A stretch of DNA of 64,000 nt, taken from contig CM000150.2 in the NCBI GenBank assembly GCA_000004695.1, forward strand, positions 2,496,001 to 2,560,000. The letters run 5' to 3'. The notes below the pieces were generated by a model. That model saw nothing but the letters and a program-made list of their open reading frames with translations, ran no database searches and was not told the DNA's origin. This stretch comes from Dictyostelium discoideum (Eukaryota). The position numbers were made by a program, and so were the translations under genes. Of this stretch, positions 1,222 to 63,157 are shown piece by piece; the stretch's first letter is position 1, and every line of letters starts with the position of its first letter.

Positions 1222-3823
1222 TTATTTTTTAAACTTTTTAGAATTTTCTTTATTTTTTTGTTCTTCAGCTTTTCTTTTAATATTTTGTGCCATTTCACTT
1301 AAACTTGATTTTGATGTTGTTGTTGTAGTGGTAGAATTAGTAGTAGTTGAATTTAAATTTTGATCTTTTAATTTATTTCTTCTTTCTAAAATTTCTTTTT
1401 CTTCTTTTTCTTTTTCAACTTTACGACGATTTTTCTTTTCGGTTAACATTTCAACCATACCAGTAGTTCTTTTGAATTTAGGGTCTGTTGGATCTATAGC
1501 GTAAGCTGGATCAATGAACATGCTATGAAATCTATTATCAGTTGTATTCATTTTGAAACCTTGGAGATCAATTAAATGTTTATCATCTTGGACATCCATT
1601 TTTTGATTTTTCTTTTTCAATTTCTTTTCCAATTTCTTTCTTTCAATTGGATCGATTGTATTCATTTTAGCTTCTCTCTCCAATTGTTTCTTTGTATAAC
1701 CTTTATTCTTTGAGAGATCATCATCCATTAAAAGTAACTCTAACTCTGCTTTCTCTTTTTTTTCCTCTTCAGTGACTCTACCTTTAGATTTATTCTTTTT
1801 TTGTTGTTTCTCTTTCTCTTCTTTCTCTTTAATTAATTTCTCAATTTCAATTCTTCTCTCTCTCTTTTTTTGTGATTTCTTTTCTTTCTTCTTTTCTAAA
1901 TAATCTGTAAAAACATTACCATTCTCTCTCTTTTCTTTTTCTTTTAATAATTTTTTACCAACATTATTTAAATTTGTATTAATTACCATCTCTTGAACTG
2001 TATCATCTTCTGAATCTGATTTTAAATCTTTTGCCCAATCTGGTGTTTCTGAATCTGATCCATTTAATAAATTATCATCATCATCATCGTCATCGTCATC
2101 ATCACCACTTTCATTTTCAGATGATTCATCATCAGCAGCAGAATCTGATTCATCATCATCATTTTCTTTATTAATTATACCTTCTTTATCAGATTCTTCA
2201 TCTTCTTCATCACTTGAACCAATTTCTTGATCTGAAAATTTAATTGAAAGACCATCGTCATCATCATCATCATCATCACTTTCATTTGATTTTTGTTGTT
2301 TTTGTTGTTTTAAAGTATCAGAGAAAGCTGAATTAAATGTAATTTGAATATCATCTTTTTCTTCTTCATCTTCAATACCATCTAATAATAATGATTTATA
2401 TTTATTTCTAAGTGCTAAACGTTTTGAATTTTTAGTTGTTTGTTTTCCATTTTTATTATTATTATTATTATTATCACCATCATCAGATGATTCTTCAGAT
2501 GATTCTTCAGATGAAGTTGGATCAGCTAAATATGCTCTTAAATCTTCTTCTCTTGCATCAAATTTTGAAAAGTTTTTAGTTAATAACTTCTTTCTAGTCT
2601 TATCGATATCCCAAGTGAAATCGACTGCTGTACCTTTAAGAATTGAAGTTTGGAAACCAAAACCACCATTTTCATCAGTTGAAGCGGGTAACTCTGTACA
2701 AGTGTCTCTTGGTGTATTTGTGAATTTTTGATCATCTGGAATGAATCTAAGATCTAAAACATTTGCTGTATCTTCAATTTCCATACCTTCACATTCTTCA
2801 TAAATTTTATTGGCAGTTTGAATTGAGCTACATTCAACTACAGCGTAATAGTATCTTAATTTCGATAATTCATATTGTCTTAACTTTTCCAAATTAAATC
2901 CTTTACCATCTAATGATTCTGCATCCTCTAGTTTATCAAAACTTAATGAACTCTCTTTTAAGCCATTATTATTACTATTGTTTATTATCGCTTTACTTGA
3001 GTCCCAAATTTCTTTATTTGGACCCAACGATTTTTCACGTGCCATTTGTTCCAAACCAAAATCCGATGGATAAATTGTAATTCTTTCAATATGACCACCA
3101 CCTGATGATGGTACAAATGAATTCAATAATATAAATAATTGTTTTGATGTAATATTATCCCAATCACAATTTAATACTGCAAATCTTTTAGTTGCATCAC
3201 CTCTTGGTACTTCCTCTTCTTCTTCCTCTTCCTCTTCAATATCATCACCTTGAAACTCTTCTGCATCTGAACTTTCTGTGTCTGAATTATATTCAAATCC
3301 ACCATATTCAATAACTTTTTCTGATTCAATATCTGAATTAATTGATTCCTCTTCTTCAACTTCTGATTCTGACTCTGATTCTGATTCAACAACTGGTTTC
3401 TTAATTTCTTTCTTTGTTGTTGATTTTGGTTTCTTTTCTTTTTCTTCTTTTTCTTCTTTTTCTTCATTTTCTAAAACATAGGTTTTCTTAATTGATTTAT
3501 CAATTTTTTTGTTTACAATCTTTCTACCATATTCATCAATTGGTGCTAAAAATAATGAAAAGAATTAACAAATTTTGTTATTAAATATTTATTATTTTTT
3601 TTTTATTTTTTATTTTTTTATTTTTTAAAAATTTACCATCTGATGTGAATGAACTATTTGATTTCATTAAATCACCGAATCTATTATCAAGTTGAACTGC
3701 CTTATCTTTTCTTCTGTACATCTTAAATTTTGGATCATTTTGAGCATGTTTAAAACGATTATCTGTAATTGCACCATTATTTGGTTTATTACCACCATTT
3801 TGTTTTGTTTTATTACTTTTCAT
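1222..3823 (-). CDS. esf1: ESF1 homologue (pre-rRNA processing / 18S biogenesis factor); 2 exons: 3637..3823 and 1222..3545
   Basis: Exon 1 starts MKSNKTKQNGGNK... and ends GAT G|gtaaat. Intron 3546-3636 ends tttag. Exon 2 translates ...RFAVLNCDWDNITSKQLFILLNSFVPSSGGGHIERITIYPSDFGLEQMAREKSLGP..., which matches the conserved ESF1 core. A long acidic/Ser-rich region follows, then a NUC153-like C-terminal segment (FIDPAYAIDPTDPKFKRTTGMVEML) and a Lys-rich tail. Total is about 836 aa, ESF1-sized. Confidence 0.7.
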
Positions 3824-8699: not shown

Positions 8700-9723
8700 T
8701 TAATTTTGCCTATTTTTTAAGAATATTGGTTTGGTAATTTAAAAACACAATTTTAAAAATATAAATTTCTTACCAATTGTGACCATTTATTTAAATAAAT
8801 AACTCCATTCCATATATAAGGATCACCATCATTCTTTTTTTTAACCAAAATATATTTATTCATTAGACCATCCAATTATTTAAAAGTTTTGATAGTTTCT
8901 TTTGCCAAAATTTTACTCTCAATTACTTCCAACTTAATGACTCCTGTTTTTTTCTCGTCAACCTTTTTTTTGAGGTCTTCAGAATAGAAAGAGGCTGATG
9001 ATACCCTTTTTGCTCCAGAACCTGGAAAAACTGTATTAATGGTTTGAATATTTAAATTACCATTAATAATATACTTTGGAATAATATGAAGTTCTTCTTT
9101 TGACAAAGTTATACAAATTGAATGCTGCGCGTGTTGATTATCTAAAGTCCCTGTACCGTAATTATAAAGAGGATGATATAAGGTTCTGGAGATTTTGGAA
9201 CACTGTGAATTACATGAATTCCCCCTTCTTCATTCCAAATAAAAAATCCTTTTGCATGTGCCTTTTTTAACACATGAAACATATGAAAAAAAAAGAATTA
9301 ACAACAAATTATAATAAAAAAAAAATAAAAATAAAAATTTAAAATTAACACATACACTATTATCTCCACGGGTTGATCATTATAGGTCAAACTATTATAT
9401 ATAGTTTTACCAGAGCTATTTGGATAACTCTGTTTGTATGTTGATGCAATTGGGTTTGGCTCATGCGGATTCCTAATATTATAATAAGCTAATTCATTAA
9501 TCACCCTATTTAATTCATTATCAGTATAAATAGCACCTCTACTGTGACTCAATTGTTCTAAAACCCACCATTCAACATTCTTTTCTATTTTAACTCCATC
9601 TTTATCTATAAACACCTGACTTTTTGTATAAACATTTTTTGTTGTTATACATTTTGGAGGAACACAATAAATTTGTGATATTAATAAAAATAAATATAGA
9701 ACTATTATATATTTATTTTTCAT
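8700..9723 (-). pseudogene. DNase II-like gene, copy 1: 5' remnant (exon 1 plus disrupted exon 2), 3' exon lost
   Basis: Exon 1 (9298..9723) is intact, with signal peptide MKNKYIIVLYLFLLISQIYC and a GTATGT donor. Exon 2 begins AHAKGFFIWNEEGGIHVIHSVP, then frameshifts (…SPEPYIILFIITVQGL*) relative to copy 3. It carries an in-frame TAA where copy 3 has GAA (…KTFK* versus …KTFKELDG). After the exon-2 donor, the sequence diverges from copies 2 and 3 (duplication boundary near 8650-8700). Confidence 0.5.
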
Positions 9724-10113: not shown

Positions 10114-12047
10114 ATGGTAAAATATAAAATAATAATATCATTTTTATTTTTTATTTTATATTGCAATTGTTTCACATTTGGTAGTTACACATTTGATACA
10201 AAAAATTGGTCAACAAATGGTACACTATCATCATGTGTTTTTTATGATTTTGTAAATAACGATTATTATGATTTAAGAGCTATTGTCCACAATGATCATC
10301 AAGGTCCTTACAAAGCAAGTTTTCCTGCCGAACTTCCTGGTGGAATTCAAACACCTTATACAATGTATTTTAATCCTTGTTTTAATGATAATGTGTGTCC
10401 AGGTGGTCTTTCAGTAGGTTGTATGAGTTATGTGCAAAATTCACAAAAAATTCTTAATTCCGTTGGTTCACTTTCAGAGCCACATTCTATAACATTAAAT
10501 TCAGAAGGTATTTCTATTGAATATCAATCAGCTCTTTTACCATCAACAACATGTGCCTCTAATGGTAACCGTAGAACTTTGGTTTTATTTATTACTTGTA
10601 TCCCAACCGAAACATTTAAAATTATTGGTACTTATAACAGAAGAGTATTATGTGAACATACAATTTATATATCTTCAAAATTAGTTTGTAAAGATAGAGG
10701 AATATTATTTAATCAAGGTCTATTTTATGATTTAACACCAATGAAATTGTAAGTTGTTAAATTCTTTTTTATATTTTTTTTTTATTTTAATTTTTTTTTT
10801 TTTTTGTTTTTAATAAAAAAAAAAAAAACCAAACACGAAATTTTTTGTTTTTAATAAAAATTAAAATATCTAACCACTTTTTTTTCAATTTTTTATTTTT
10901 TTCTTCCCACAGATTAGCAAGCACTTCACACCAAATTACCAACAGTGACCAAACACAAGATATTCTCTTTAATTTATTCGGAAATGTAAATAGATGTGGT
11001 ACTTTCGGTACATCAACATTAAGTTATCAATCATGTATTTTAACAGTTGCTAATAAAGTGATCGATTATAAACTAGATTCAAGATATGCAACATCACCAA
11101 AATCAGTTATGGTAGGATCTCTCAGTCAACCAAGAACAATTACATTTACAAATGATGTAATAACCATAATTTATAGTTCAACAACTGGTTTCACAGAATG
11201 CTCATCAAATGGTAACAAATATTCATCAAAGTATATTTTAATTTGTGATCCATTCACAGAATATTATGTAGATAAATTTACATTAGAATCACAATGTATT
11301 TATCAAATTAAGGTTTATACTAAATACGCATGTCCAACATTACGTTTATTCAAACAAACACAATATTATGACCTTTCACCATTGATGTTGTAAGTATTCA
11401 ATTTATTCTTGTATTTCTTCAAAACAGTTATTAATTATTAATAATAAAATAAATAATAGGGATTCAACAAGAAATTATACAACAAGTCATATTACAGACG
11501 GATATGAGTATAATATTGTATTCAATATTGGTAATAAAGCACAAATGTGTAGCGATGCATTTAATGATTATTATTTTGCTTGTCAATATGATCCACGTTA
11601 TAAAAGTTTTAATCCACTTGCAAAGGCAAGTTTAGGTCAAAGAGTAACATTTGATTTAAATCAAGTTAAATTCGAATATACTTCACCAATGTCAGGTTGT
11701 TTAAGAACTTTTATTATTGTTTTAACTTGTGATGAAAACCAACATTATCAATTAGTTTCAACTTTAGAATCTCCTGCATGTGTATATACAGTAACAATTG
11801 AAACTAAATATGTATGTGAATCAACAATTTATTACAATAGATTCGACTATACATATTATGATATTACTCCAATAAAAACGTAAGTTTTAAATTAAATTTG
11901 AAATTAAATTTAAATATAAATAATAATATTAATAATATTAATAATCTTTATTGTCAACAACTAAAATATTAATTTAATTAGAGAAAAAGATAGTCCAAAT
12001 AAAATAGATATTGTTGTTGGTGGATATCCATATAGAGTAAGTAAATT

Positions 12048-12100
<53 letters not shown>

Positions 12101-15100
12101 AACAAATATTTTTCTAATAGCTTTTTTATGGTATCGGTAATACTGTTGATTATTGCGGAGAACAAGTGGGATCAGTCCCTGGTGTAGATTATCAAGCTTG
12201 TCAATATCTCAGTGGTCTTGTTATTCAAGTCGGTAGTTTAAAAAATACATCAATGATTCTTAATAAGGATGGTATAAGTATATATCATACCTCACCATTC
12301 GATTTAACCAAAGTGTGCCAAAATACAAGATATCAAAGAGTAAACATTTTAAATATGGTATGTGATCCAACAGCAACAAATGTTGTGGTCAGCGCTACTG
12401 AGACTGCCAACAATTGGGCATGTGAATATACAATCGAAATTAAAACTAAATATGCATGTTCAATTAATTATGCACCAGTATTACCAGTTGTTGGAAATCC
12501 ATGTTTATACAGTTGTACACCACCAGGTGCTTTAAATCCAAAAGCTATAGTTAGTGTACTTTTAAATTTAGGTGTTTGTTTCTCAGAGATTAATAAATAT
12601 GGTACAGGTGCACAATCATTACTTAATATATTTAAAGATACTTGGGTTTCAAATCACAATGGGTATGATGATTGGATGGGTGGACAACTTTATTCACTAT
12701 TATTAACAGGTAAACCACAGTCAACAATTTCACCATATGTTATTTCAATTACACATGATAATTTATGTACATATGGTGCCGATGGGTTAAGTAAAGCAAA
12801 AAATTCAATCAATGATTTTCTTACTATTACAAATGATCTTCTTGAAATTTCAAATCGTGCAGTTAGTTTAACCGTTACCAAATATACATATTCAGATGGA
12901 GCAATTACATTATCAACACATAAACTTTTATCAACATCAACTGGAGGTCTTGCAATTATTAAATACAAAAATTTGCTATGCTACTATTCAATAGTCCCAA
13001 ATTTACAAACTTTAATTATTGGGAGTTATTTGCTTTCTTGCCCATATTATTCACTACCAACTATTACAGTGCACAGTTTAACACCATCAATAGGGAAAGT
13101 TGGAGATACTATCACAATTAATGGTCAAAATTTAGATACAGATATATATGATGTTTATTTCAACATTATTGATGACAACAGTAAAATTAAAGCAACAATA
13201 ACATCAAGAACCGTAAATTTTGTAAAAGTAATTGTTCCAAATGGTTTTGGTAATGCATTAGTCTACACTCAAAATATACTTAATCCAACTACCTCCGATA
13301 AACTTTCATTTTCATATCCATCACCAACGATTGTCAAAGTAATTAGTCAACCATTTAGTACAGGTATCATCAATAGATTCTTTGTTATTGGTCAAAACCA
13401 TCGTTCTTTAATAACCAATATTGTTATTAATCCATACATCGATAATATTGAAAAAGAAGCAATTTATTGTGAAATTGAAAAGTATTGTCCAAGTTCATCA
13501 AAAATTCCATCGATTTCAGGATCAGCAGTAGGTCATCCATGTATTGATTCAACAGTTTACTCTGAGAATTCCCAGTTTTTCGATTATTCCAAGTATGATG
13601 TTTTTGTTTGTATCAAATCATCATTAGGTGTTGGAAGTGGTATCATTAAATTCCCATCACAAACATTTACATTTGCATACTCTTATAAAGCACCTCTCTT
13701 ATATTTTGTACCACCTGGCATTCGTATTCCAACTGATGGTGGTAGTTTTCAATTGGATGGTAAAAACTTTCCGCCAACACAAGAAATCATTGATCTCGGT
13801 TTAAACACACCTGTAATCATTTGGAATAATGATAATTTTGTTACATTCAAAGGAACAAATCTTGCAAATACCAATATCAATTGGAAGAGTTCGAAATCGA
13901 TTTTATGTGTTGCACCACCTGGTTTCGGTGGACCATTCATCGTTACAGTAACTGTCGGTAAACAAGTGTCAAAGACTATATATCCAAGTGATTTAGATGA
14001 AAATCCAACAAATTATAATTTATATTATTATCCCCCAGCAGTTGTTGACATATCAGAAGTTTCAACTGATGGTGGTGAAGTTATAATAAAAGGTACAAAT
14101 TTTATTCCAGCCTCGCTTAAAGATCAAATTAATAATCAACCAATAATCGGTTCACCTCATTCAGTAGAGTTTAATAATGTTTTATCTTCATCATGGACAT
14201 GGATTGATTCAACACATGTAAAAGCCATCGTACAAAAAGGTATTGGTACAATCTCTACAATTGTAAATGTTGGTGGTCAAAGATCTGATTTAAATCCAAT
14301 TCCTGTAAATTTTTACAAAAGACCTGAACTAGATAATAAAAAATATGAAAACTTTGCAAATAGTGATATTTTAATAACTGGTTCTAATTTTATACCAGTT
14401 GGTGTTTCAGCAGGTTCATCAAGTTCTGTCAAAATCGGAGGTATTCCCTGTAACTCTGTAACATGGGTAGATTCAAAATCTGTTATTTGTAATGTGCCAA
14501 TTGGAACTGGTGATAATTTAAATATCCAAGTAACAGTTGGAGGTCAACAAACCGAATTAAATGATTATTTCTCATATTTAGGGCAATGCGATTTCCTCTG
14601 TAGCGATTTATCAAATTTAGTAAGTTTTTAAACATTTTAATTACAGAAAAAAAAAAAAAAACTAAAAAATACTAATTTATTATCATTTTTATCTCAAAGG
14701 AATTAGCAAAAGTTATTGGGGAAAATAAAAAAGATTTAAAGAGTACTCTTTTATTAACAGGTGTATGTTTAGAACAAATTGAGCAATATAATTTCACAGA
14801 TATTAATGATGAAATTGAATCAAGTTGGATTGAAAACTCAATTATTGATGATTGGACAAGTGGTAAATTCTATAACTATTTCAAATCATCAGAATCATAC
14901 TCAACAGTTAAAACACTTGCAAAATATATTACACCAAAGAATCCATGTATTTATGAAAATAAAAGAGTAAAGAATTCATTAGATTACCTTTTTGAAATCA
15001 ATTCAGATATTTTCCATTTAATTGAACTTTCAATTTCATCAAAAATCAGTTATCCAGATTCACCATATGAAACTTATTTCTATGAATCATCAAGCAACCC

Positions 15101-18100
15101 AGAGTATGGTCTTTCAATTATTACATTTGATTCAGCAATTTGTAGCTTTACAGAATCAACTATTCAAGACTATCAAAGTGGAAAAGTATTACAATCATGT
15201 TCAATCATTCCAATTATAAATCAAGTAATTAATCCAACAACAACACTTCAAGCACCATATCAATATTCACTTACAATAATTGGTAGATTATTTGATAGTT
15301 CAACTAGAATATTCTTATCAGGTTATGAATGTCCAATCATTGGTAATATCGCTACTAATCAAAATGATTATATTCAAACTCTTAGTTGTTCAGTACCACC
15401 AGAAATCGAATCATACTCGGCCTCTCAAATTACTTTTTACAATGATTATAGTGAAAATAATATATATAATTTCTTGTTTTATTTTAAAAAATCATTCTTT
15501 TTTAAATATCCAATTTCAACAGTAACTCAAATTCAATACCCATCAAGTGGTCCAATTCAAATGAATTCTGAAATTAAAGTAATTGGTTTTAATTTCTTCC
15601 CATATGGTATTACAAATCCAAGCATTCAAGTTTTTATTGATGATCTTGAATTAACTGATACTATATTTGGATTAACAAGCATAAATGGAGTTGATTCATT
15701 TTCATTTATTGCTTCTGGTTTAGGTTCTTTAAAGTAAGTGAAAAAAAAAAAATTAAAAAAAAAAATTTATAAATATTTATTAATATTTAAAAATATTTTT
15801 TTACAGTTTCATTCGATTATTTTATAGTAATAGTTTACCGATGTTTATAAACGATGATATTAATTTAGAATTCTCATTTGAAAGACCAATTATTAATAGT
15901 ATATTACCAACAAATGGAGATTACAATACAAAAGTTACAATTAATGGTAATAATTTTAGAAAAGGTCAATCAGTAAAAATTGGAGACATATTAGTAAATG
16001 ATATTGAATTCATTTCAAACCAAGAGATTATTGCTTCAGCACCATTTGGATTTATTAGTGGACTTGTAGTTGTTTATTCAGATGATCAATTCAGTTTAGA
16101 AGAAATATCATTTAGTTATACTTCACCAATTATAGACCAAGTTATTCTTTCAAATTATGAATCAAAATTAAACACAACAGGTACAAATTATTTCACAGTA
16201 ATAGGTAGAGGTTTAGGTACATACATTGCAGAACAAGTCGATATTATTATCAATCAAGAGTTTTATGCAAGTTGCGAATTCGATTTCTGTGAAAGTTTAG
16301 AAATTATTGAAGATATAGATATAAAAGATCAAGGAATTTGTCAATATTTAAAATATAATAAATATCAATATATCAATGAAAACTTTGATATATTAAATTG
16401 TATTTTAACCGATTCGATTGGTAAAGATAAATCAATCAGTATCAAAATTTCAGAATTCCAAAACCAAACTTTCACCTACTCTTATTATGAACCATGGATT
16501 GAAAAATTAACACAAAACTCTTCATCAGCAAACACTGATGGTGGTGAAGTTATCGTTATAAATGGTTACAACTTTTTACCATTCGAAAATTTAAGTCCAT
16601 ACTATGAAAACAATGAAACTATTGCACAATGGTTAAATCAATCAGAAATATTAATTGGTGAAAGCTATCTTTGTCAATCAATTAATTGGACCAATTCCTA
16701 TGAATTAAATTGTACAATCCCACCAGGAATTGGTGTTAATCATACAATCATTGTAAAAGTAGGCCTTCAATCATCAAATCATACTGATTATTTGTATTCT
16801 TACGATTCACCAAACCTTGATACAATCAATAACTCCACTGGAAATGAAACACATTACTATTCTTCAACAGATGGTAACAATGAAATTATAATAACAGGTT
16901 ATAACTTTATTCCAAAAGAGTTATCAGATCATTACAACCAGAATGAAAATAAAACCATAAATTCAATACTATTAGGTAAACAATATTGTAATGAAACTAT
17001 TTGGATTAATTCAACAACAGTCAAATGTAAACCAATAGCAGGTATCGGGTCAAATTACAAAATTATCATTAAAGTTGGTAATCAAGATTCAAACGAAACC
17101 GTTTACTTCTCATATGAGAAGCCAATTTTAGATTTAAAGAATTACACAGGTTCAACAAATGGTAATACTGAAATTACAATAACAGGTATCAACTTTATTC
17201 CAAAAGAATTAGCAGATAATAATAATTTCAATCAATCAGAGAACTATATAATGATTGGTGATAATAAATGTAACGAAACTATTTGGATCAACTCAACAAC
17301 AGTTAAATGTAAACCAATATCAGGTACTGGTATCAATCATAGAGTTATAATAACAGTTGGTAATCAAAACTCAAATGAAACGGTCTACTTTTCATATGAT
17401 AAACCAATTTTAGATATTAAAAACTATAGTAGTCCAACTGATGGCAATACTGAAATCACAATAACAGGTGAAAACTTTATTCCAAAAGAATTAGCAGAAA
17501 ATAATAATTTCAATCAATCAGAGAACTATATAATGATTGGTAATAATGAATGTAATGAAACTATTTGGATCAATTCAACAACAGTTAAATGTAAACCGTT
17601 AGCAGGTATCGGGTCAAATTACAAAATTTTCATTAAAGTTGGTAATCAAGATTCAAATGAAACCGTTTACTTCTCATATGAGATGCCAATTTTAGATTTA
17701 AAGAATTACACAGGTTCAACAAATGGTAATACTGAAATTACAATAACAGGTATCAACTTTATTCCAAAAGAATTAGCAGATAATAATAATTTCAATCAAT
17801 CAGAGAACTATATAATGATTGGTGATAATAAATGTAATGAAACTACTTGGATCAATTCAACAACAGTTAAATGTAAACCAATATCAGGTACTGGTATCAA
17901 TCATAAAGTTATCATAACAGTTGGTAATCAAAACTCAAATGAAACGGTCTACTTTTCATATGATAAACCAATTTTAGATATTAAAAACTATAGTAGTCCA
18001 ACTGATGGAAATACTGAAATCACAATTACAGGTGAAAACTTTATTGAAAATTATAATCAAGAAAAACATAATGAAAATGATAATTTCGTTAGAATTGGTG

Positions 18101-20856
18101 AAAATAAATGTAATGAAACAAAGTGGATAAATTCGACAACAATTAAATGTAAAATAATTCAAGGTATTGGTTTAGATTATAAAATAGTTGTAACAGTTGC
18201 CAATCAACAATCAAATGAAAATGTTTTCTTTTCATATGAAAAACCAATGATTGACAGTAAAACACTATTAGCATCAACCAGTGGCAGTGAAACTATTAAA
18301 ATTACAGGTACTAATTTCATTCCATCAACTTTAGTAGAACATTACAACAAAGAAGAAAATAAAGATAACTCAATAAATTCAGTTACTATCAATAACGAGT
18401 TTTGTAATGATATTACATGGATTAGCTCAACAGAACTAACATGTAAACCATTAGCAGGAGTTGGAACCAATCATACTATATTCATTTTGGTTGGAACTCA
18501 AAAATCAAATGAAGAAAACTCATTCTCATATAAACCTCCGAATATTGAAGAGTTTAAATACTACACAGCACCAACACATTCCAATAAAATTATTACTATA
18601 ACTGGTGAAAACTTTATTCCAATCGAATTATTATCAAAAGACAACAGCAATAGTTCAGTACTTATTGATAATATAAAATGTGAAGAAATCAAATGGATTG
18701 ATTCAACAAAAGTTTCATGTCAAGTTCCAGTAGGTCAAGGTAAAGATTTATCGATTAAAGTTAAAATTGAAAATCAAGAAACTGAAGAAAATCAACAATT
18801 TTCATATGATAAACCATTTATTCAATCAATCAATCCAAATAAAGGAAGATGTAATCAAGAAGTATTAATTACAATTCAAGGTGATAGTTTTGGAAAGAGT
18901 GATCAACTAATTAAAATTGGTAATAACGAATGTCAAGATATTCAATTCTATCCAAATCATACATTTACATGTAAAGTTCCAATCGTGGAGAATTCAATTG
19001 AATCCATTGTTTTATTAAATGTTGGCAATCAAGATTCAAACGATAACATTACATATAAATACTATGGACCACCAGAAATTAAAAGTATTGGTTTACCATC
19101 ATATCTTTCATTCAAAGGTGATGATTTAATTACAATCATTGGTAATAACTTTATAGAATATGATGATGGATCTGATGAAATTGTTAAATTTAATAATGAA
19201 CCAACAACTATCATTGAAAACACAGAAACATACATTAAAATTAAAACTCTTAGTGGTGATGAATTTAATGTACCAATTGCTGTAGAATTAAATGGTCAAA
19301 TAAGTAATACAGATACTTCATTCGTTTACTCAAATCCAATAATTGAAAGTGTAACACCATCATCAAGTAGCTCAAAATCAAATACTAATATCATCATTAA
19401 AGGACATAATCTTGGGTATTTAACAAACACTCCCAAAATTACAATTGGAAGTAGTAATTGTTTAAATATCAAAACTATATCTCCAAATGAAATTCATTGC
19501 ATCGTTATGAAATCAAGCGCAGGCACTAAACAATTAACATTAACCTATGAAAGTTATCAACCAACCTATTCACAATTCACTCACAAAAACGATGATGACA
19601 GTGATAGCCACGATGATGATGATGATGACCATAAAAACAATAATGGACCAAAAAACACCATATTAAGTATTCTTGGAGGTATAATTGGAGCAGCAGCATC
19701 AGCAGCCGTAAGTGGATTTATAACAAGCATTTTCGGTGGTGCGACATCAGTAGCCACAGCAGCAGCAACAGCAACAGCAGCAGGTACTGCGGTAGCAGCA
19801 GCAACTACAGCGTCAACAGCAACAGCTATTGCCGGTGCAATTACCGAAGGTGTTGCAGTGGCCTTTACAGGGGTATCAGTAATAGCAGCAACAGCAGGTG
19901 GTGTTGTTATTACTTCAATTGTAACAGCAACAGCCATCCTTATTTCAGGTGGAAGTACACAATCACCAACTCCAACCATAGCTCCAACTATTTCACCAAC
20001 TCCAACGCCAACCGATAACTATTGGGTAAGATGTATGGTCGATTATTCAAGATTAACTTTACAAGTCGATAATCTTTACGGTCAAGATATAGTATGTATT
20101 GATGGTAATGGAATTTCATCAATTTTCAACGAATCATTCTCTTGTAAACCTGATCTTATTAACGATGGTATGATATGTGCTCAACAACATCAAGATGGAA
20201 CAAATTCAACAACCACATTTGGTAATTCAACATTAATTTGTCATATTGACTCAACAAAATCATGTGAAATTTCACCACCATTCATCATACCATCCGATCC
20301 AATTGAAGATGATGAATATTCAAATATTCTAGAATGTCAATATAATCTCATTGAAAATTCATTATCAACACACTCTAATAATAGTCCACTAAGATGTTAT
20401 AATAATGAAACTGAAAATTACTTCATTATGAATACTACACTTTCATGCTCAAAAGATGAATCATTAAGTCAAGATAAAGATACGATTTCTTGTTTAGCAG
20501 ATACAGATGACACTCAAATCTTTTTCTATAAGAACTCAATTACATGCATTACAGATTATCCATACTATAGATGTACAATGAAATCTCAACCATCACAAGA
20601 TGATAACATAATTCCAAAACCAACATTACCACCAATTCCATCAATTGATGATGATTCCACATGTATTTATGATTCAGCCAATTCATATTCAATAGATCTC
20701 CAACTAACGACTGGAACTAATGCTAAATGTCCAAAAAATGAAAAAGAACTTCGTTATGATCTTTCAACTTCTCTAACATGCACTGATTATATCACACTTA
20801 AAAACTCCACTTATTCAATTTCATATTCAAATTACATTTGCATTAAAACAAAATAA
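10114..20856 (+). CDS. giant secreted/membrane glycoprotein with 4 CI-MPR-like (MRH) repeats plus IPT/TIG repeat array plus Ala/Thr hydrophobic block plus Cys-rich C-terminal domain; copy 1, 7 exons: 10114..10748, 10913..11389, 11460..11879, 11982..12036, 12121..14619, 14700..15733, 15807..20856 (about 3389 aa)
   Basis: Signal peptide MVKYKIIISFLFFILYCNC. Exons 1, 2, 3 and the start of exon 5 each encode a roughly 150-aa Cys-containing domain ending in a C-x-Y-x-h-x-h-x-T-K-Y-A/V-C motif (CIYQIKVYTKYACP, CVYTVTIETKYVCE, CEYTIEIKTKYAC, CEHTIYISSKLVCK). Each is followed by YDLSPL/YDLTPM/YDITPI, the pattern of cation-independent M6P-receptor repeats. All introns are GTAAGT...AG, AT-rich, and phase-consistent. 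Exons 5-7 encode many roughly 96-aa beta-sandwich repeats (…TDGNTEITITGENFIPKEL…CNETIWINSTTVKCKP…VGNQ.SNETVYFSYEKP…) typical of IPT/TIG domains, with N-glycosylation sites throughout. C-terminal part: acidic HDDDDDDH, roughly 100-aa GC-rich Ala/Thr hydrophobic low-complexity block, PT-rich linker, then a roughly 290-aa Cys-rich domain. Confidence 0.65.
17118..18050 (+). repeat. tandem array of near-identical 288-bp units (alternating A/B variants) encoding IPT/TIG-like repeats inside exon 7
   Basis: Units starting EKPILDLKNYTGSTNGNTEITITGINFIPKELADNNNF… (A) and KPILDIKNYSSPTDGNTEITITGENFIPKELAENNNF… (B) recur A-B-A-B with almost identical nucleotide sequence. Paralogue copy 3 (38951..43393) has exactly one A-B pair fewer (1480 versus 1671 aa in the last exon). 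Confidence 0.7.
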
Positions 20857-21194: not shown

Positions 21195-23300
21195 TTAAAT
21201 TAAAATATAATTAATACTTACACCTTTGGTATATTCACCCAAAACTTTTGTAAATTCCTTAATGGAATTGATGTTTTGTAGATCACCATGTCTATTTTCA
21301 GTTAAGAGAATACAATAGATAAGATGATCTTGGCAATCTGGATGATATTTAATGATTTTTGAGTCTGTATCACTTGGAAAAGCTTTACATATTTTTTTAT
21401 TAATTTCATTATAATCCTTATGACCTTTTTCGCTATCACTTTGATCGCCTTCGATTTTATTTGGGAATTTAAATGGTACTAAATCATTGATTTCAACTTC
21501 TTTCAATTGAATGATGTTTTTATTTTTAATAAATTTCAATTTTTCATAAAGTTCTTTTACTAAATCAATATTTTTTAAATCGATATATATCTTATCTGGG
21601 AAAGGTGTGAGTATTGATGTTGGTTCGATAATGGTATTTTGTGTTAGAGCAGTTACCTTTTTATTATCTCTTGATGAGGTAAGTGTAAATGTTGATTCAA
21701 CATAGATATCTTTAAACAATTGGTAAGATTTGGATTTTTCAAAGCTACAAGTGACATCATCATTATCACATAAAATAATTTCCCCATTGATTGATGGAAA
21801 CACATTGAAATCGAATAACTCTGATTTGTATATATTTTGATCCTTAAGTTGGGTTAATAGTGGAATATAAACATTGTCATAACCATAGTTATATTCATTT
21901 GAAAATAATTTATCTTCATCTTTTTCATTATTGTAAACGATATTAAATGGATTCAAATGATAGTATTTTTCATCATCTCCATAACCTTTTACCTTGGTTT
22001 CAAAGTTTAGCTTTCTGTTACCTAAAACATTAGATCATTTGGATATTTTTCTATTAATTCGTTTAAATTCAACTTTTGACCTGCAATGCTATTTAATCTT
22101 AAAGAAGCTTTTCTAAGATATTGACCATCCTCTGGGTGTCTAATTATACCAACTCTTCTGTAAAAGTATTCAGAAAGATATTTCATTTCGTCACTGCAAA
22201 AAGAACCACCTCCACGTGCCTCTTGCCTTCCATGCCAATTTAAATCACCAAAGCAAATAGTCCCACCACCGCCACCGCTATATGCTTTATCCATATAATT
22301 GATTTGATAAGACATTTTTGAATGGTCACTTCCTGAATCAGAGCTAATAACTGTTGACCAAGGTGTTTCGAATCTGTAAGAAAGATATATTGATACAACT
22401 GCTGGAGACATTTCATTTTTTCCTTTTTCCATCTTTGTTTGAGTATGGACCATTGTTTTAAAATTATTACCATTTTTAAAACTATAGATGTAATGCCAAA
22501 GTATAAAAAATTTAATTTTTTCCTTGTGAGTATTTTCAATTTTATCACTATACTCTTTATAAAGGTGTGTATTTGTTGTTTGAATGAAGTAATCCCCTTT
22601 ATTTTTACTCTCATAAATTTTATTATAGTGAACATTTGTTTCATGAGCTGTATCTGATGATGTAATATTTTTGTTTAGAATTAAATCTGCCTATTTTAAG
22701 AATGTAAGTTTGATGATTTATTAACACAAATTTATAATTAAAATTACTTACCAATTGTGACCATTTATTTAAATAAATAATTCCATCCCATATATCAGGA
22801 TCAACTTTATTCTTTTTTTTAACAAAAATATTATCACTCATTAGATCATCCAATTCTTTAAAAGTTTTGGGAATTTTTGTTTCTAAAATTGAACTATCAA
22901 TTTTTTCCAACTTAATGACTCCTGAGCTTATCTTTTCAACCTCTGTTTGAAGATTTTCGGAATAAGAATCGGCTGATGATACCTTTTTAACCTTTTTACC
23001 ATTTCCTGTTGAAACTGTATTAATGGTTTGAATATTTAAATTACTATAAATAATATACTTTGGAATAATATAAAGTTCTTCTTTTGACAAAGTTATACAA
23101 ATTGAATGTTGAGCATGTTGATGATTTAAAGTATTTTTATCGAAATTAAAAAGAGGTTCATATCCTGTTTCTGGAGATCTTGGAACACTGTGAATTACAT
23201 GAATTCCCCCATTTTCATTCCAAATGAAAAATCCTTTTGCATGTGCCTTTTTTAAATAAATAAATTAAAAAAAAAAAATATGTTAACAAATAATGATAAC

Positions 23301-23337
<37 letters not shown>

Positions 23338-23734
23338 AATAATAAACACAAACACTATCTTCACCACTACTGAGCTGATCATTATAAGTCAAACTATTAT
23401 ATATAATTTTGTTGTCAGATTTATTTGGTAAACTCTGTTTGTATGTAGATGTAATAGGGTTTGGTTCTTTTGGATCTCTAATATTATAATTTGCAATTTC
23501 ATTTATCTCTGAACTTCCTCCTTTTAATGTGTTATCAGTATAAATAGCACCTTGACTGTGACTTAATTGTTCTAAAAACCACCATTCGACATTCTTTTCT
23601 ATTTTAACTCCATCCTCAAATACTTGACTATCCTTGTAAATATTTTTTGTTGTTATACATTTTGGAGGATCGTTACAATAAATAGGTGATATTAATACAA
23701 ATAAATATAAAAAAATAATATATTTATTTCTCAT
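21195..23734 (-). pseudogene. DNase II-like gene, copy 2: 3 exons present but reading frame broken in exon 3
   Basis: Exon 1 (23336..23734, signal peptide MRNKYIIFLYLFVLISPIYC) and exon 2 (…AHAKGFFIWNENGGIHVIHSVPRSPETGYEPLFNF…MSKEELYIIPKYII…) are intact. In exon 3 a 5-bp deletion relative to copy 3 (near 22030) shifts the frame. This gives ORFs 22022..22453 (…DHSKMSYQINYMDKAYSGGGGGTICFGDLNWHGRQEARGGGSFC…KYPNDLMF*) and 21195..21956. Confidence 0.5.
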
Positions 23735-24196: not shown

Positions 24197-24221
24197 TCGT
24201 ATTGAAATTAAAAAAAAATGG

Positions 24222-25808
24222 TAAAATTTTAAATAGTTATATCATTTTTATTATTTATTTTATATTTTAATTGTTTCACATTTGGTAGTTACACATTTGA
24301 TACAAAAAATTGGTCAACAAATGGTACACTATCATCATGTGTTTTTTATGATTTTGTAAATAACGATTATTATGATTTAAGAGCTATTGTCTATCCTGAT
24401 CATCGAGGTTCCCACAGAGCAAGTTTCACAGCTGAGCTTTCTGGTGGAATTCAAACACCATATACAATATATTTTAATCCTTGTTTTAATGATCATATGT
24501 GTCCAGGTGGTCTTTCAGTAGGTTGTATGCAAAAATAGAGGAGTATTATTTAATCAAGGTCTATTTTATGATTTAACACCAATGAAATTGTAAGTTATTA
24601 AATTCTTTTTCATATTTATTTTTTTATATTTTTTTTTTTTAAAATAATTATCAAAAAATAAAAAAAAAAAAGAACCAAACACAAAATTTCAAAATAAAAA
24701 AATCTAATCTTTTTTCACTTTTTTTTATTTTTTTTTAATTTTTTTATTTTTATTTTTTTTTCCCACAGATTAACAAGCACTTCACACCAAATCACCAATG
24801 ATGACCATACAAAAGATATTCTCTTTAATTTATTCGGAAATGTAAATAGATGTGGTACTTTCGGTACATCAACATTAAGTTATCAATCATGTATTTTAAC
24901 AGTTGCTAATAAAGCGATCAATTATAAACTAGATTCAAGATATGCAACATCACCAAAATCAGTTATGGTAGGATCTCTCAGTCAACCAAGAACAATTACA
25001 TTTACAAATGATGTAATAACCATAATTTATAGTTCAACAACTGGTTTCACAGAATGCTCATCAAATGGTAACAAATATTCATCAAAGTATATTTTAATTT
25101 GTGATCCATTCACAGAATATTATGTAGATAAATTTACATTAGAATCACAATGTATTTATCAAATCAAAGTTTATACTAAATACGCATGTCCAACATTACG
25201 TTTATTCAAACAAACACAATATTATGATCTTTCGCCATTGATGTTGTAAGTATTCAATTTAATTAAAAAACTTTTTTGGTGTTTTATTCTTTTGCGCTTA
25301 TTAATTATTAATAATAAAATAAATAATAGGGATTCAGCAAGAAATTATACAACAAGTCACTTTACAGACGGATCTGAGTTTTTTATTGTATTCAATATTG
25401 GTAATAAAGCACAAATGTGTAGCGATGCATTAAATGATTATTATTTTTCTTGTCAATACGAACCACGTCAAAAATTTTTTTATCCACTTGCAAAGGCAAG
25501 TTTAGGTCATAGAGTAACATTTGATTTAAATCAAGTTAAATTTGAATATACTTCACCATCAACAACAACTTGCTCATCAAATTCCTATAAAAGAGATCTT
25601 ATTGTTATTTTAAATTGTGATGAAAACCAACATTATCAATTAGTTTCAACTTTAGAATCTCCAACATGTGTATATACAATAACAATTAAAACTAAATATG
25701 TATGTGAATCAACAATTTATTACAATAGAATTAACTATACCTATTATGATATTACTCCAATAAAAACGTAAGTTTTAAATTAAATTTAATTATAAATTAT
25801 AAATTATA

Positions 25809-25874
<66 letters not shown>

Positions 25875-28800
25875 TATAACTTTATTAACAACCAAAACTA
25901 TTAATTTTAATTAGAACAAAAGATAGTCCAAAAACTGTAGATATTGTTGTTGGTGGATATCCATATAAAGTAAGGGATAATTTTTAAATTTTTAAATTTT
26001 TTTTTTTTTTTTTTTTTTTTTTTGACAAACACCAAACGTGTGTGAAACTAAAATTTAAATATTTTATATATATTTAAAAATGGTTACTAACTTTACTTTA
26101 TTAATTTTTTCCAACAGCTTTATTACGGTATAGGTAATACTGTTAATTATTGCTCAAATCAAGTGGAGTCAGTTCCAGGTGTTGATTATCAAGCTTGCCA
26201 ATATCTCAGCGGTCTTGTTATTCAAGTCGGTAGTTTAAAAAATACATCAATGTATATAAGTAATAATGGTATAAGTATATATCATACCACACCATTTGAT
26301 TTAACCAGAGTATGCCAAAATACAAGATATCAAAGAGTGATACAACAGCAATTAACGTTGTGGTCAGCGCTACGGAGACTGCCAATTATTGGGCATGTGA
26401 ATATACAATCGAAATTAAAACCAAATATGCATGTCCAATTAATTATGCACCAGTATTACCAGTTGTTGGAAATCCATGTTTATACACTTGCACACCACCA
26501 GGTGCTTTAAATCCAAAAGCTATAGTTTGTGTACTTTTAAATTTAGGCTTGTTTCTCAGAGATTAATAAATATGGTACAGGTGCACAATCATTACTTGTT
26601 ATATTCAACAATACTTGGGTTTTAAACCACAACGGATATGATGATTGGATGGGTGGACAACTTTATTCACTATTACTAACAGGTAAACCACAAACATCGA
26701 TTTCACCATATGTTAGTTCAATTACACATGATAATTTATGTACATATGGTACCAATGGGTTAAGTAAAGCAAAAAATTCAATCAATGATTTTCTTACTAT
26801 CACAAATGATCTTCTTGAAATTTCAAATCGTGCAGCCAGTTCAACCGTTACCAAATATACATATTCAGATGGAGAAATTACATTATCAACACATAAACTT
26901 TTGTCAACATCAACTGGAGGTCTTGCAATTATTAAATACAAAAATTTGCTATGCTACTATTCAATAGTTTCAAATTTACAAACTTTAGTTATTTCGAATT
27001 ATTTGCTTTCATGTCCATATTATTCACCAACTATTACAGTGTTCAGTTTAACACCATCAACAGGGCAAATTGGAGATATTATCACAATTAATGGTCAAAA
27101 TTTAGATACAAATAGATATGATGTTTATTTCAACATTATTGATGACAACAGTAAAATTAAAGCAACAATAACATCAAAGTAATTAGTCAACCATTTAGTA
27201 CAGATATCATCAATAGATTCTTTGTTATTGGTCAAAACCATCGTTCTTTAATAACCAATATCACCATTTATCCATATATCGATAATATTGAAAAAGAAAC
27301 AATATATTGTGAAATTGAAAAGTATTGTCCAAGTTCATCAAAAATTCCATCGATTCCAGAATCAGCAGTAGGTCATCCATGTATTGATTCAACAGTTTAC
27401 TCTGAGAATTCTCAGTTTATAAGGTACAAATTTTATTCCAGCCTCGCTTGCAGATCAAATTAATAATCAATCATTAATTGGTTCACCAAATTCAGTCACG
27501 TTTAATAATGTTTTATCTTCATCATGGAAATGGATTAACTCAACACATGTAAAAGCCATCGTACAAAAAGGTATTGGAGCAATCCTTACAATTGTAAATG
27601 TTGGAAGCCAAAGTACTGAAACGAGTCCATATCCCGTAATTTTTTATAAACAACCTGAATTAGATAATAAAAAATATGAAAACTTTGCAAATAGTAATAT
27701 TTTAATAACTGGTTCTAATTTTGTACCAGTTAGTGTTTCAGCAGGTTCATCAAGTTCTGTCAAAATCGGAGGTATTCCCTGTAACTCTGTAACATGGGTA
27801 GATTCAAAATCTGTTATTTGTAATGTACTAATTGGAACTGGTGATAATTTAAATATCCAAGTAACAGTTGGAGGTCAACAAACCGAATTAAATAATTATT
27901 TCTCATATTTAGGGCAATGCGATTTCCTCTGTAGCGATTTATCAAATTTAGTAAGTTTTTAAACATTTTAATTACAGAGGAAAAAAAAAACTAAAAAATA
28001 CTAATTTTTTACATTATAATCTCAAAGGAATTAGAAAAAGTTATTAGAGAAAATAAAAAAGATTTAAAGCAATAGTTCAGTACTTATTGATAATATAAAA
28101 TGTGAAGAAATCAAATGGATTGATTCAACAAAAGTTTCATGTCAAGTTCCAGTAGGTCAAGGCAAAGATTTATCGATTAAAGTTAAAATTGAAAATCAAG
28201 AAACTGAAGAAAATCAACAATTTTCATATGATAAACCATTTATTCAATCAATCAATCCAATTAAAGGAAGATGTAATCAAGAAGTATTAATTACAATTCA
28301 AGGTGATAGTTTTGGAAAGAGTGATCAACTAATTAAAATTGGTAATAACGAATGTCAAGATATTCAATTCTATCCAAATCATACATTTACATGTAAAGTT
28401 CCAATCGTGGAGAATTCAATTGAATCCATTGTTTTATTAAATATTGGCAATCAAGATTCAAACGATAACATTACATATAAATACTATGGACCACCAGAAA
28501 TTAAAAGTATTGGTTTACCTTCACATCTTTCATTTAAAGGTGATGATTTAATTACAATCATTGGTAATAACTTTATAGAATATGAAGATGGATCTGATGA
28601 AATTGTTGTTAAATTTAATAATGAACCAACAACTATCATTGAAAACACAGAAACATACATTAAAATTAAAATTCTTAGTGGTGATGAATTTAATGTAACA
28701 GCAACAGCCATCCTTATTTCAGGTGGAAGTACACAATCACCAACTCCAACCATAGCTCCAACTATTTCACCAACTCCAACGCCAACCGATAACTATTGGG

Positions 28801-29629
28801 TAAGATGTATGGTCGATTATTCAAGATTAACTTTACAAGTCGATAATCTTTACGGTCAAGATATAGTATGTATTGATGGTAATGGAATTTCATCAATTTT
28901 CAACGAATCATTCTCTTGTAAACCTGATCTTATTAACGATGGTATGATATGTGCTCAACAACATCAAGATGGAACAAATTCAACAACCACATTTGGTAAT
29001 TCAACATTAATTTGTCATATTGACTCAACAAAATCATGTGAAATTTCACCACCATTCATTATACCATCCGATCCAATTGAAGAGATGAATATTCAAATAT
29101 TTTAGAATGTCAATATAATCTCAATGAAAATTCATTATCAACACACTCTAATAATAGTCCACTAAGATGTTATAATAATGAAACTGAAAATTACTTCATT
29201 ATGAATACTACACTTTCATGCTCAAAAGATGAATCATTAAGTCAAGATAAAGATACGATTTCTTGTTTAGCAGATACAGATGATACTCAAATCTTTTTCT
29301 ATAAGAACTCAATTACATGCATTACAGATTATCCATACTATAGATGTACAATGAAATCTCAACCATCACCAGATGATAACATAATTCCAAAACCAACATT
29401 ACCACCAATTCCATCAATTGATGATGATTCCACATGTATTTATGATTCAGCCAATCCATATTCAATAGATCTCCAACTAACGACTGGAACTAATGCTAAA
29501 TGTCCAAAAAATGAAAAAGAACTTCGTTATGATCTTTCAACTTCTCTAACATGCACTGATTATATCACACTTAAAAACTCCACTTATTCAATTTCATATT
29601 CAAATTACATTTGCATTAAAACAAAATAA
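24222..29629 (+). pseudogene. MRH/IPT receptor-like gene, copy 2: decayed, internally deleted remnant
   Basis: Exon-1 homologue has a 1-nt insertion giving ATG GTA AAA TTT TAA, plus a roughly 300-bp internal deletion (24222..24590). Exons 2 and 3 remain (24965..25249, 25292..25771). The exon-5 homologue is fragmented by frameshifts and deletions (26163..27182 and following). The whole region equivalent to 14640..18640 of copy 1 is missing. The C-terminal fragments 28407..29105 and 29201..29629 carry a precise deletion of the Ala/Thr block (…EFNV|TATAILISGG…). Confidence 0.6.
25811..25870. repeat. (AAT)n microsatellite in intron 3 of receptor-like copy 2
   Basis: About 20 perfect ATA/AAT triplets. 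The orthologous intron of copy 1 (11885..11975) has only a few. Copy 3 has about 40 (34897..35019). Confidence 0.8.
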
Positions 29630-33045: not shown

Positions 33046-43393
<10,348 letters not shown>

Positions 43394-43899: not shown

Positions 43900-45720
43900 T
43901 TTTTTTATTTCTTAATGCACCATTTTGGTTTTATAGAATTTTAATATACCTTTATGAAGTTGAGTAAATTTTAAATCCTTTTGAATAATTGAATCTAAAA
44001 AATATTTAAAAATTGCTACCCTAGATTTATTTGATAAATCAGACCAATTATCAAAAATGAATTTATAATTTTCAATTGTTAATTTTGATTTTTTAATTAT
44101 TTTATAATATTCTAATTTACCAAGATTGGAATTTCATTTGATTTTATAATTGAAAGTATCCTATTATAAATATGATTTAATGAGTCTTGATAAAGTTGTT
44201 TATGATTTAATTTAAAATGAAATGCTAAAATTGGATTAAAAATTATTTCACTTAAAATATTATCATCACCATCTAATTCAATAATACTTAATAAAAAATC
44301 AAATATTTCAATTGAAATTTCATAAGAAAATGGTGATACATCAAAAGATTTTAAATTAAACATTGGTTTAAAATATTTAATTTTATAAATTAATTTTAAT
44401 AATTCTAAATCTAATTTATAAATACTATAAAGTATTAAATTATTAACTTCTTTTGAAATTTTTAATGAATTATTATTATTATTATTACTATTACTATTAT
44501 TTTCAATTATCCAATTTAATTCTTTAATTCTACTATTTTCAATTTTTCATGATTTCCACAATAATATAATGAATTATTATTATTAAAACTATTAATATTA
44601 ATATTCATAGGTTTTAATTCTGATGATATAATATAATCACCAAATTCTGATTTTTTAAAAATTTTTGATTGATAGTGGATATTGATTATTAAATTTAATA
44701 TTAAAAAATATTAGATTTTCAAGTATAATAGTTGAATCTAAAAATTTATAAACCAATATAAATAATCTCTTTACAATTTCAATATCATTTTTATTTTCAA
44801 TATTAATTATTAATGATCATTAAATTTCATTTCATTTAATTCTTTTTGAATTTTTGGAATTTCTTCAAATTCATTATCAATCTTTGTTAATTTCGAAATT
44901 AATGAATTCTTGGCATTGATTGATATATGATTTTGAAATTGTAATATCAATATTATATTGTATAAATTTTTTAAAACAATCATATAATGAATAAATTAAA
45001 TTTGTTATACCAAATAATGTTTTTAAATTTGTTTCAAATAATTTTAATTCAAATAAACCTAAACCAATTAATTCTTCAGATTTACTTTTACTTGGTTTTA
45101 AAATTTTTAAATCATTTAATAAAAAATTAACTTTTTCAATTAATTTATTAAAATGATCATTATTTCTTTTTTTAAATATAATATCTTTCCAAATTTCATT
45201 ATTTTTTGTTGATTTATTATTATTATTATTTTTTAAATAATTGAAAATAATTTTTGAAATTTCATAAGATCCAATATCAATTGATATTTTAATGATGATA
45301 ATTTTGGTTCTAATTTATAATTTTCAATTAAAATTTTATATAATGATATATTATTATATTTGATTGAAATTTTTTCTAAATATTCAATTGAATTATTAAT
45401 TGTCGTTGTCTTTGTCGTTATTGTTGTAGTTATTAACTGAAATTCATTTGAATAGTTTTTTAATAAATTTAAAAATAATTCTTTATTATTATCAATATCT
45501 TGTTTAAATTGATTAAATATTGAATATTTATAATTATTGATTTTAGTTTCTTCATTATAATAATTTAATTTTGTAAAAGAAAAAACTAAATTTGATTTTC
45601 TTTTAATCTTATCTTTTAATAATCCTAAATGATTATTCTTTATCATCCATTCAACATTTTCAATCTTTTCATAAGAATATGAACACCATCCACTTATTTT
45701 TGATTGTTGTTTAATAAATT
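43900..45720 (-). pseudogene. degenerate multi-frame ORF region (possible pseudogene or intron-rich gene); weak
   Basis: Minus-strand ORFs 45233..45646 and 44112..44363, plus other coding-like stretches (…SGWCSYSYEKIENVEWMIKNNHLG…, …NLKSFDVSPFSYEISIEIFDFLLSIIELDGDDNILSEIIF…), lie in different frames without convincing GT..AG introns between them. Confidence 0.2.
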
Positions 45721-47145: not shown

Positions 47146-47191
<46 letters not shown>

Positions 47192-47533: not shown

Positions 47534-47668
47534 TTAAATTAAATCCATTTTACCACCCTCCACTAATGATTTGATTGGTAAATATTTTAAAAAGTAAATT
47601 GAAGTTTTTTTAAAATCAATTGTTTCGCTATACATATTTAAAAAAAATAGAAAATAAAAAATTAATAA

Positions 47669-47699
<31 letters not shown>

Positions 47700-63156: not shown

Positions 63157-63157
63157 A

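Follow-up and report, generated by a model that had tools for sequence, protein, structure and literature searches.

Gene A and its four repeats

[quoted passage not shown] The gene is made up of seven exons (10114-10748, 10913-11389, 11460-11879, 11982-12036, 12121-14619, 14700-15733 and 15807-20856), with every donor reading GTAAGT and every acceptor AG, and the frame stays open through all seven to the stop codon; an alternative acceptor at 15827 would give a product of 3,383 residues. The region is AT-rich and the introns are short. The possibility that several separate genes had been read as one was considered and rejected, given the single open frame and collinearity over the full length with P0004, an independent NCBI gene model ('Dictyostelium cf. 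discoideum', 3,198 residues), and because of this collinearity we take gene A to be a single giant gene. Residues 1-23 (MVKYKIIISFLFFILYCNCFTFG, 10114-10182), an N-terminal hydrophobic segment in the hydropathy scan, were assigned by inspection as the signal peptide.

An earlier, sequence-only reading of this DNA had described four repeats with a common C-terminal signature at the N-terminus of a giant glycoprotein, and this description holds. The repeats, of about 140-155 residues each, together cover positions 10228-12465: D1 (residues 39-194) lies at 10228-10695, D2 (195-354) at 10696-11339 across intron 1, D3 (355-492) at 11340-11823 across intron 2, and D4 (493-644) at 11824-12465, divided over exons 3, 4 and 5 by introns 3 and 4, exon 4 being 55 nt long. 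The general layout is a start of (Y)YDL or YDI, with YDLTPM at residue 205, YDLSPL at 364 and YDITPI at 504, and an end of C-x-Y/H-x-I-x-I/V-x-S/T-K-Y/L-x-C, the end signatures being CEHTIYISSKLVC at residue 180, CIYQIKVYTKYAC at 340, CVYTVTIETKYVC at 478 and CEYTIEIKTKYAC at 630; that of D1 is degenerate, with His and Leu each replacing a Tyr. A six-frame scan of the window with the end signature written as a regular expression gave 11 matches, every one of them in gene A or its two paralogues, as compared to a mean of 0.01 over 100 shuffles, and the YDL motif was matched 9 times where shuffles predict 0.05. The repeats do not fill the interval 10114-14619 initially allotted to them, and the remainder (∼2.1 kb) encodes a Cys-containing module and the first IPT/TIG domains.

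Introns 1, 2 and 3 break a codon after YDLTPMK, YDLSPLM and YDITPIK, respectively. These are exactly homologous codons, all interrupted in phase 2, and they sit about 17-20 residues inside the next MRH domain. Exons 2 and 3 are symmetric (477 and 420 nt). The first description of one repeat per exon needs correcting in register, since exon and domain boundaries are offset and D4 is split over exons 3-5. Nor is the YDLxPh motif a linker following each repeat, as had been thought; predicted secondary structure and alignments place it in the first β-hairpin of the next domain, as in CI-MPR. The repeat unit at the DNA level is one MRH domain offset by one β-hairpin, as tandem duplication of a symmetric exon would give, and the homologous positions and common phase of introns 1-3 establish that the four domains arose when a symmetric exon unit in phase 2 was duplicated in tandem. 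Exon shuffling, the origin proposed earlier, fits less well, the pattern being one of internal duplication and no sign of shuffling from another gene.

MRH fold and sugar pocket

Several profiles of increasing independence were used to classify the repeats. A profile built only from the four repeats of gene A and those of one paralogue matched bovine CI-MPR in the PDB with E = 2e-12, and the other ten matches were all to MRH proteins. A family profile of 38 single domains, cut from relatives found by phmmer, matched CI-MPR at 8e-133 with end-to-end matches (positions 2-147) to essentially every repeat; the best of these were domains 9 (6e-16), 5 (3e-16, human fragment) and 3 (1e-13), which are the carbohydrate-binding ones, and further matches were to CD-MPR, glucosidase II beta, ERLEC1, GNPTG and OS-9. 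In order to avoid circularity we also built a profile from 25 amoebozoan MRH domains that lie outside the group of proteins combining MRH and TIG domains. It matches bovine CI-MPR at 4.9e-127 and scores D1, D2, D3 and D4 at 48.3, 71.2, 72.6 and 64.3 bits, respectively, so that the four repeats fall in a range of 48-73 bits, with MRH families and not an unrelated Cys-rich fold recovered.

Searches with single repeats were less sensitive. Pfam placed D3 alone above a family cutoff (PRKCSH_1, an MRH family, 25.5 bits against a cutoff of 23), D4 gave sub-threshold matches to CIMR, ATG27 and PRKCSH, and neither D1 nor D2 was matched when scanned singly. When profiles from D1 only and D2 only were run against the PDB, CI-MPR was the top match in each case with E values, 1.8 and 0.04, that are not significant, and the membership of these two domains, as judged from sequence, is for this reason transitive though strong.

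Structure prediction leads to the same classification. An AF2 model of the D3-D4 pair was calculated from a 26-row alignment of two-domain fragments using P0001, a paralogue or allele sequence in which 8 of 294 residues are not those of the window. The model has a pLDDT of 88.8 (about 88-95 for D3) and a pTM of 0.79, and it shows the flattened β-barrel of MRH proteins, with all of the top 48 Foldseek matches in the PDB being to members of this family. The pattern of Cys residues is compatible with such a barrel. Six Cys columns are invariant in D1-D4, and these are the only ones in D2, D3 and D4; D1 contains 8 Cys, the additional two being an N-terminal Cys and the Cys of an 'NxCG' motif, both of which are missing from D2-D4. 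In CD-MPR the first disulfide joins these two residues, and their joint retention or loss, as read from the alignment, is what would be expected for a disulfide pair and fits the MRH fold. Taken together, the family profiles, the Pfam match of D3 and the predicted fold bear out the proposal of MRH/CIMR-type domains and show that the N-terminus of the gene A protein consists of four tandem CI-MPR-type MRH (P-type lectin) domains.

In solved MRH lectins a Gln/Arg/Glu/Tyr tetrad contacts the mannose ring. The corresponding columns in gene A were anchored through HMMER alignments to CI-MPR domain 3 (…VCQV…FQR…EVDCTY…) and domain 9 (…SCQE…YQR…KETSDCSY…), for the second of which we count on the alignment a Q-R-E-Y spacing of 42/20/6 in the human protein, reproducing the published numbering, Q1292/R1334/E1354/Y1360. 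The tetrad is complete in D3, with Gln413 (11584-11586), Arg453 (11704-11706), Glu474 (11767-11769) and Tyr480 (11785-11787) at a spacing of 40/21/6, much like that of CI-MPR domain 9. It is also complete in D4, with Gln557 (12202-12204), Arg602 (12337-12339), Glu623 (12400-12402) and Tyr632 (12427-12429), where the spacing is 45/21/9 and a 3-residue insertion precedes the Cys. The equivalent positions are degenerate in D1 (Met104, Arg154, Asn175, His182) and in D2 (Ile254, Tyr315, Glu337, Tyr342), where the third position was also recorded as E/L, the latter domain containing in addition an insertion of ∼14 residues. In the AF2 model the tetrad residues of D3 and D4 occupy equivalent strand positions. 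A full QREY set is found in domains 1 and 4 of the D. purpureum protein and in 15 of 41 family domains, and that of D3 is present in every paralogue and orthologue examined. Alignment and model together show that the predicted mannose-binding tetrad is kept in D3 and D4 and mostly lost in D1 and D2, which by analogy with the non-binding repeats of CI-MPR are probably structural or supporting domains. Because the tetrad contacts the mannose ring itself, its presence predicts recognition of mannose and gives no indication as to phosphate, methyl-phosphate or sulfate.

Stalk, C-terminus, tandem copies and relatives

Beyond D4 the protein continues with a Cys-containing module of ∼195 residues (residues 645-842, 12466-13059) that has no Pfam match and carries the motif D-D-W-x-x-G-x-x-Y; it recurs as a second copy, an internal repeat read in the sequence, at residues 1350-1545 (14581-15248), and the D. 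purpureum orthologue has it as well, at its C-terminus. A stalk of ∼20 IPT/TIG repeats with many N-glycosylation sequons extends over residues 843-2965 (13060-19581), interrupted by the second Cys module. Its motifs recur with a periodicity of about 95 residues, and on the two segments that were scanned Pfam TIG (PF01833) was matched in 6 stretches with E = 1.3e-52 and in 3 with 3.8e-36, the only family that Pfam found in gene A outside of the MRH region.

The stalk is followed at 19582-19959 by an Asp-rich run (residues 2966-2985) and then by ∼100 uncharged Ala, Thr, Gly, Val and Ile residues (2988-3091) with a single Glu among them. Kyte-Doolittle averages over 19-residue windows exceed 1.6 at residues 2990-3017 and 3047-3091, and judging from its composition this stretch is possibly a multi-pass or hairpin membrane anchor. 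The DNA encoding it also gives a spurious 132-residue open reading frame on the minus strand (19581-19979). The protein ends with a Pro/Thr linker and three Cys-rich repeats, as read from the sequence (residues 3092-3389, 19960-20853), a region that includes 280 Cys-rich residues with NxS/T sequons, finishes in ...ICIKTK and reaches the cutoff of no Pfam family. The Asp-rich, hydrophobic and Cys-rich elements (19582-20853) are conserved in the paralogues. The protein was searched for a type I anchor followed by a short tail in the cytosol with AP/GGA sorting motifs, and none was found, the sole hydrophobic region being that at residues 2988-3091.

The window contains the giant gene three times in tandem. 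Gene A is intact. Paralogue C (33046-43393, + strand) is intact over the part that was modelled and has the same architecture; its D3 keeps the QREY set, and in its D4 the tetrad Gln is replaced by Ser. Paralogue B (24218-29629, + strand) has decayed: its first exon is truncated, D4 contains a frameshift and there are internal deletions, which makes it a probable pseudogene. Intron 3 of gene C (34890-35040) contains a long (AAT)n-type repeat whose open frames read as poly-Asn or poly-Ile. In front of each copy lies a DNase II-like gene in divergent orientation, with minus-strand open reading frames at 9298-9723, 22022-23734 and 29954-32497, so that the duplicated unit comprises a giant gene of about 11-14 kb together with its DNase II neighbour. 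The lysosomal-type hydrolase next door, which had been offered as a hint to function, is real (Pfam DNase_II is above cutoff) but uninformative, because it was duplicated along with the giant gene and because two eukaryotic genes lying side by side say nothing of a shared function.

Over exons 1-5 the synonymous divergence (dS) between A and C is uneven, 0.03 in D2 and 0.05 in D3 as compared to 0.21 in D1 and 0.33 in D4, and protein identities vary from 96% in D2 to 80% in D1 and 75% in D4. This mosaic and the ratios of nonsynonymous to synonymous divergence (dN/dS), 0.45-0.92, suggest gene-conversion tracts over D2-D3 and relaxed constraint overall. Positive selection was considered and is not supported, dN/dS being below 1 in all segments.

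Other genes downstream, in 44000-64000, encode a fragment with TIG and teneurin-like EGF domains (46013-46876, − strand), a ZIP zinc transporter (49000-50412, −), an EMP70/TM9 (Phg1-like) protein (53132-55945, +), a cation-efflux protein (58441-59370, +) and a C2-domain protein (60911-61732, −).

A homologue search with the four-repeat region returned only three D. discoideum hypothetical proteins. An exhaustive phmmer search with the paralogue P0002 against 1.84 billion representatives matched 16 proteins in all: the D. discoideum paralogues, orthologues from D. firmibasis and D. purpureum with MRH and TIG domains, tandem-repeat proteins with MRH domains only from Polysphondylium violaceum and metagenomes, and one protein from Rhizomastix. 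In this search the combined MRH and TIG architecture was confined to three species, D. discoideum, D. firmibasis and D. purpureum. Homologues from D. firmibasis, D. purpureum and P. violaceum bear the automatic UniRef label 'MRH domain-containing protein', and none of them has been characterised. The Rhizomastix protein (P0015, a 511-residue transcript product of R. libera) combines three MRH repeats with a transmembrane segment and a 38-residue tail that ends in ...VQYTPLPL and has a YxxPhi-like motif; its predicted architecture is far nearer to that of MPR or LERP than are the Dictyostelium proteins, making it a candidate amoebozoan sorting receptor.

A D. discoideum gene that goes by the name 'MRH domain-containing protein', namely DDB_G0283243 on chromosome 4, is uncharacterised and appears in a 2026 paper as the site of Asp413Tyr, a mutation that a suppressor strain carries along with three others (PMC12954983). 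Identity with gene A was not established, residue 413 of gene A being Gln and the nearest Asp residue 415.

Function and comparison with known systems

We consider it reasonably probable that the gene A protein is an extracellular lectin for mannose glycans, carried on a long stalk at the cell surface or in the matrix. The D3-D4 pair would bind mannose-type N-glycans, which may be plain high-mannose chains or the methyl-phosphomannose and mannose-6-sulfate glycans that are abundant on Dictyostelium glycoproteins. The lectin head would be displayed at the far end of the ∼20 IPT/TIG domains, with the stalk either anchored by the small-residue hydrophobic segment or released into the matrix, and in either case the site of glycan recognition would be the cell exterior or the lumen of endocytic compartments. 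Candidate roles include cell-cell, cell-matrix or prey adhesion, recognition of self glycoproteins and capture of secreted glycoproteins; the protein would not be a cargo receptor between Golgi and lysosome. We favour an extracellular role because the TIG stalk is long, a sorting tail is lacking, the phyletic range is narrow and the locus is multicopy and partly decayed. According to a 2018 review (PMC5758549), D. discoideum is thought to have lectin-like receptors for sugar derivatives at its surface.

A number of points weigh against this reading. The dN/dS ratios between A and C, 0.45-0.92, suggest weak constraint. Compared with all of the paralogues, the Cys451-Arg453 loop of D3 in gene A (11698-11706) is shorter by a deletion of 5 residues, leaving C-L-R with one residue between, where the paralogues have 6-7 residues, for example C-S-S-N-S-N-K-R, a sequence that resembles C-S-S-G-F-Q-R of CI-MPR domain 3. 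The loop between the Cys and the tetrad Arg holds phosphate contacts in MPRs, and on the basis of the alignment its shortening might alter or abolish the putative sugar binding of D3. The tetrad cannot separate phosphomannose from plain high-mannose ligands, and the phosphate-contacting residues vary among the known MPR domains such that they are not assignable from sequence. The predicted geometry of the pocket is, moreover, derived from alignment and strand positions, and some well-folded MRH domains, CI-MPR domain 11 among them, bind proteins and not sugars.

In a different explanation, the MRH domains are structural or protein-binding modules devoid of lectin activity. There are precedents in domain 11 of CI-MPR, which binds IGF2, and in the five-repeat CIMR-type receptors LERP of Drosophila and TvMPR of Trichomonas, which lack most of the mannose-6-phosphate-binding residues (PMC8717582). 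The degenerate tetrads of D1 and D2, the shortened D3 loop of gene A, the missing Gln in D4 of copy C and the relatively high dN/dS would all be accommodated. Nevertheless, the QREY set of D3 persists in every copy examined despite identities of 50-90%, and it recurs in the D. purpureum domains and the wider family as described above; if no sugar were bound, there would be little reason for just these four positions to be retained, and we regard the non-lectin explanation as unlikely. Also to be weighed is whether the three-copy locus forms a fast-evolving recognition or adhesion system in the manner of Tgr allorecognition, which likewise employs IPT/TIG proteins, with the variable D1 and D4 heads setting partner specificity. 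The mosaic divergence of the tandem paralogues, the IPT/TIG stalk and the clearly different alleles or paralogues in different D. discoideum assemblies would fit such an analogy. However, no segment reaches a dN/dS of 1, the uneven dS (0.03-0.33) speaks for gene conversion and not for diversifying selection, and the likeness to Tgr is one of shared TIG domains, leaving what we judge to be a small chance that the analogy is correct.

Another alternative is the one put forward in the sequence-only reading, namely that gene A encodes the missing Dictyostelium receptor that, like CI-MPR, sorts or recaptures lysosomal enzymes bearing methyl-phosphomannose. The D. discoideum enzymes carry mannose-6-phosphomethyldiester and mannose-6-sulfate (PMC5758549), and a classical report states that no mannose-6-phosphate receptor is detectable in this organism (PMC2114169). 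The domains are of the CIMR type, D3 and D4 have an intact tetrad, and the domains of CI-MPR that the family profile matches best (9, 5 and 3) are carbohydrate-binding ones. Against this, the protein has no type I anchor and tail with YxxPhi or acidic-dileucine motifs and ends instead in 280 Cys-rich residues with sequons, and a head mounted on ∼20 TIG domains would seem poorly suited to the packaging of cargo into coated vesicles. A core receptor would be expected to occur more widely than in three Dictyostelium species, yet the Polysphondylium relatives are short, contain MRH domains only and have no hydrophobic C-terminus. The locus is an array of three copies of which one has decayed, and copy C no longer has the tetrad Gln in D4. 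Glycosylation mutants that lack these mannose modifications reportedly still target their lysosomal enzymes. With no single-pass anchor or sorting tail, a TIG stalk, a narrow range and a decaying tandem array, the proposal is weakly supported and a sorting function is in our view improbable. A narrower version of the extracellular lectin reading would make D3-D4 specific for Man-6-P-OMe and/or Man-6-SO4 ('common antigen 1', CA1), so that the protein would serve as the endogenous receptor for these glycans, again not as a Golgi sorting receptor but as a lectin of the surface or matrix that would capture lysosomal enzymes after their secretion or cross-link glycoproteins bearing CA1; judged from the sequence, this is a speculative idea to which we attach a low likelihood.

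The phosphomannosyl and sulfomannosyl N-glycans of Dictyostelium are recognised by the CI-MPR of animals, and some Dictyostelium species, it now emerges, encode CIMR-type lectin domains of their own with an apparently intact mannose pocket. A literature search produced no paper on a Dictyostelium methyl-phosphomannose receptor or on the gene A protein, and the per-domain dissection, the intact tetrads of D3 and D4, the MRH-on-TIG architecture and the tandem locus were not found in the literature searched. The MRH call itself is already in the databases, where homologues are labelled as such, and this, together with the evidence against the more exciting role of a sorting receptor, tempers the result; what is new is the architecture. 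The D3-D4 pair (residues 353-645) is a defined, well-modelled and expressible fragment that bears on the old question of an endogenous receptor. Should the extracellular lectin reading be correct, the P-type lectins would extend from intracellular sorting and quality control in the endoplasmic reticulum to extracellular recognition.

No characterised MRH protein carries its MRH domains as a head on an IPT/TIG stalk. CI-MPR is like gene A in having tandem MRH domains of ∼140-150 residues that start with YDL and end with C-x-Y-...-Y-A-C, in its disulfide pattern and in keeping the Q/R/E/Y pocket in some repeats only. Gene A is not an orthologue by the features that would mark one, since it has four repeats and not 15, no FnII insert (located in repeat 13 of CI-MPR), no counterpart of the IGF2-binding repeat 11 and no single transmembrane segment with a sorting tail; its domains are fused instead to ∼20 IPT/TIG repeats and a Cys-rich C-terminus, and D2-D4 lack the first disulfide. 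CD-MPR has a six-Cys domain as in D2-D4 and a long loop from Glu to Cys as in D4. Unlike gene A, it is a single-domain, dimeric type I membrane protein with a sorting tail, and the Asp/Asn/His and Mn2+ phosphate site of CD-MPR is not evident in gene A. The mannose pocket and MRH fold are held in common with OS-9/Yos9, XTP3-B/ERLEC1, glucosidase II beta and GNPTG. LERP and TvMPR are, like gene A, short tandem CIMR-type arrays in a non-vertebrate; they have a transmembrane segment and YxxPhi or DxxLL tails but lack most of the mannose-6-phosphate-binding residues, whereas gene A has the residues in D3 and D4 and no such tail. The closest relatives beyond the orthologues, P. violaceum A0A8J4PV14 and A0A8J4V4K4 and the metagenomic P0009 (∼30% identity, E values of 1e-25 to 1e-11), share the motifs of gene A and have QREY in many of their domains, but consist of 4 to 7 MRH repeats only, with neither an IPT/TIG stalk nor a hydrophobic C-terminal region. 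Finally, the Tgr family of Dictyostelium IPT/TIG surface proteins has, to our knowledge, no MRH head and, unlike gene A, a conventional single transmembrane segment, while sharing with gene A a long extracellular IPT/TIG array and multicopy, fast-diverging loci.

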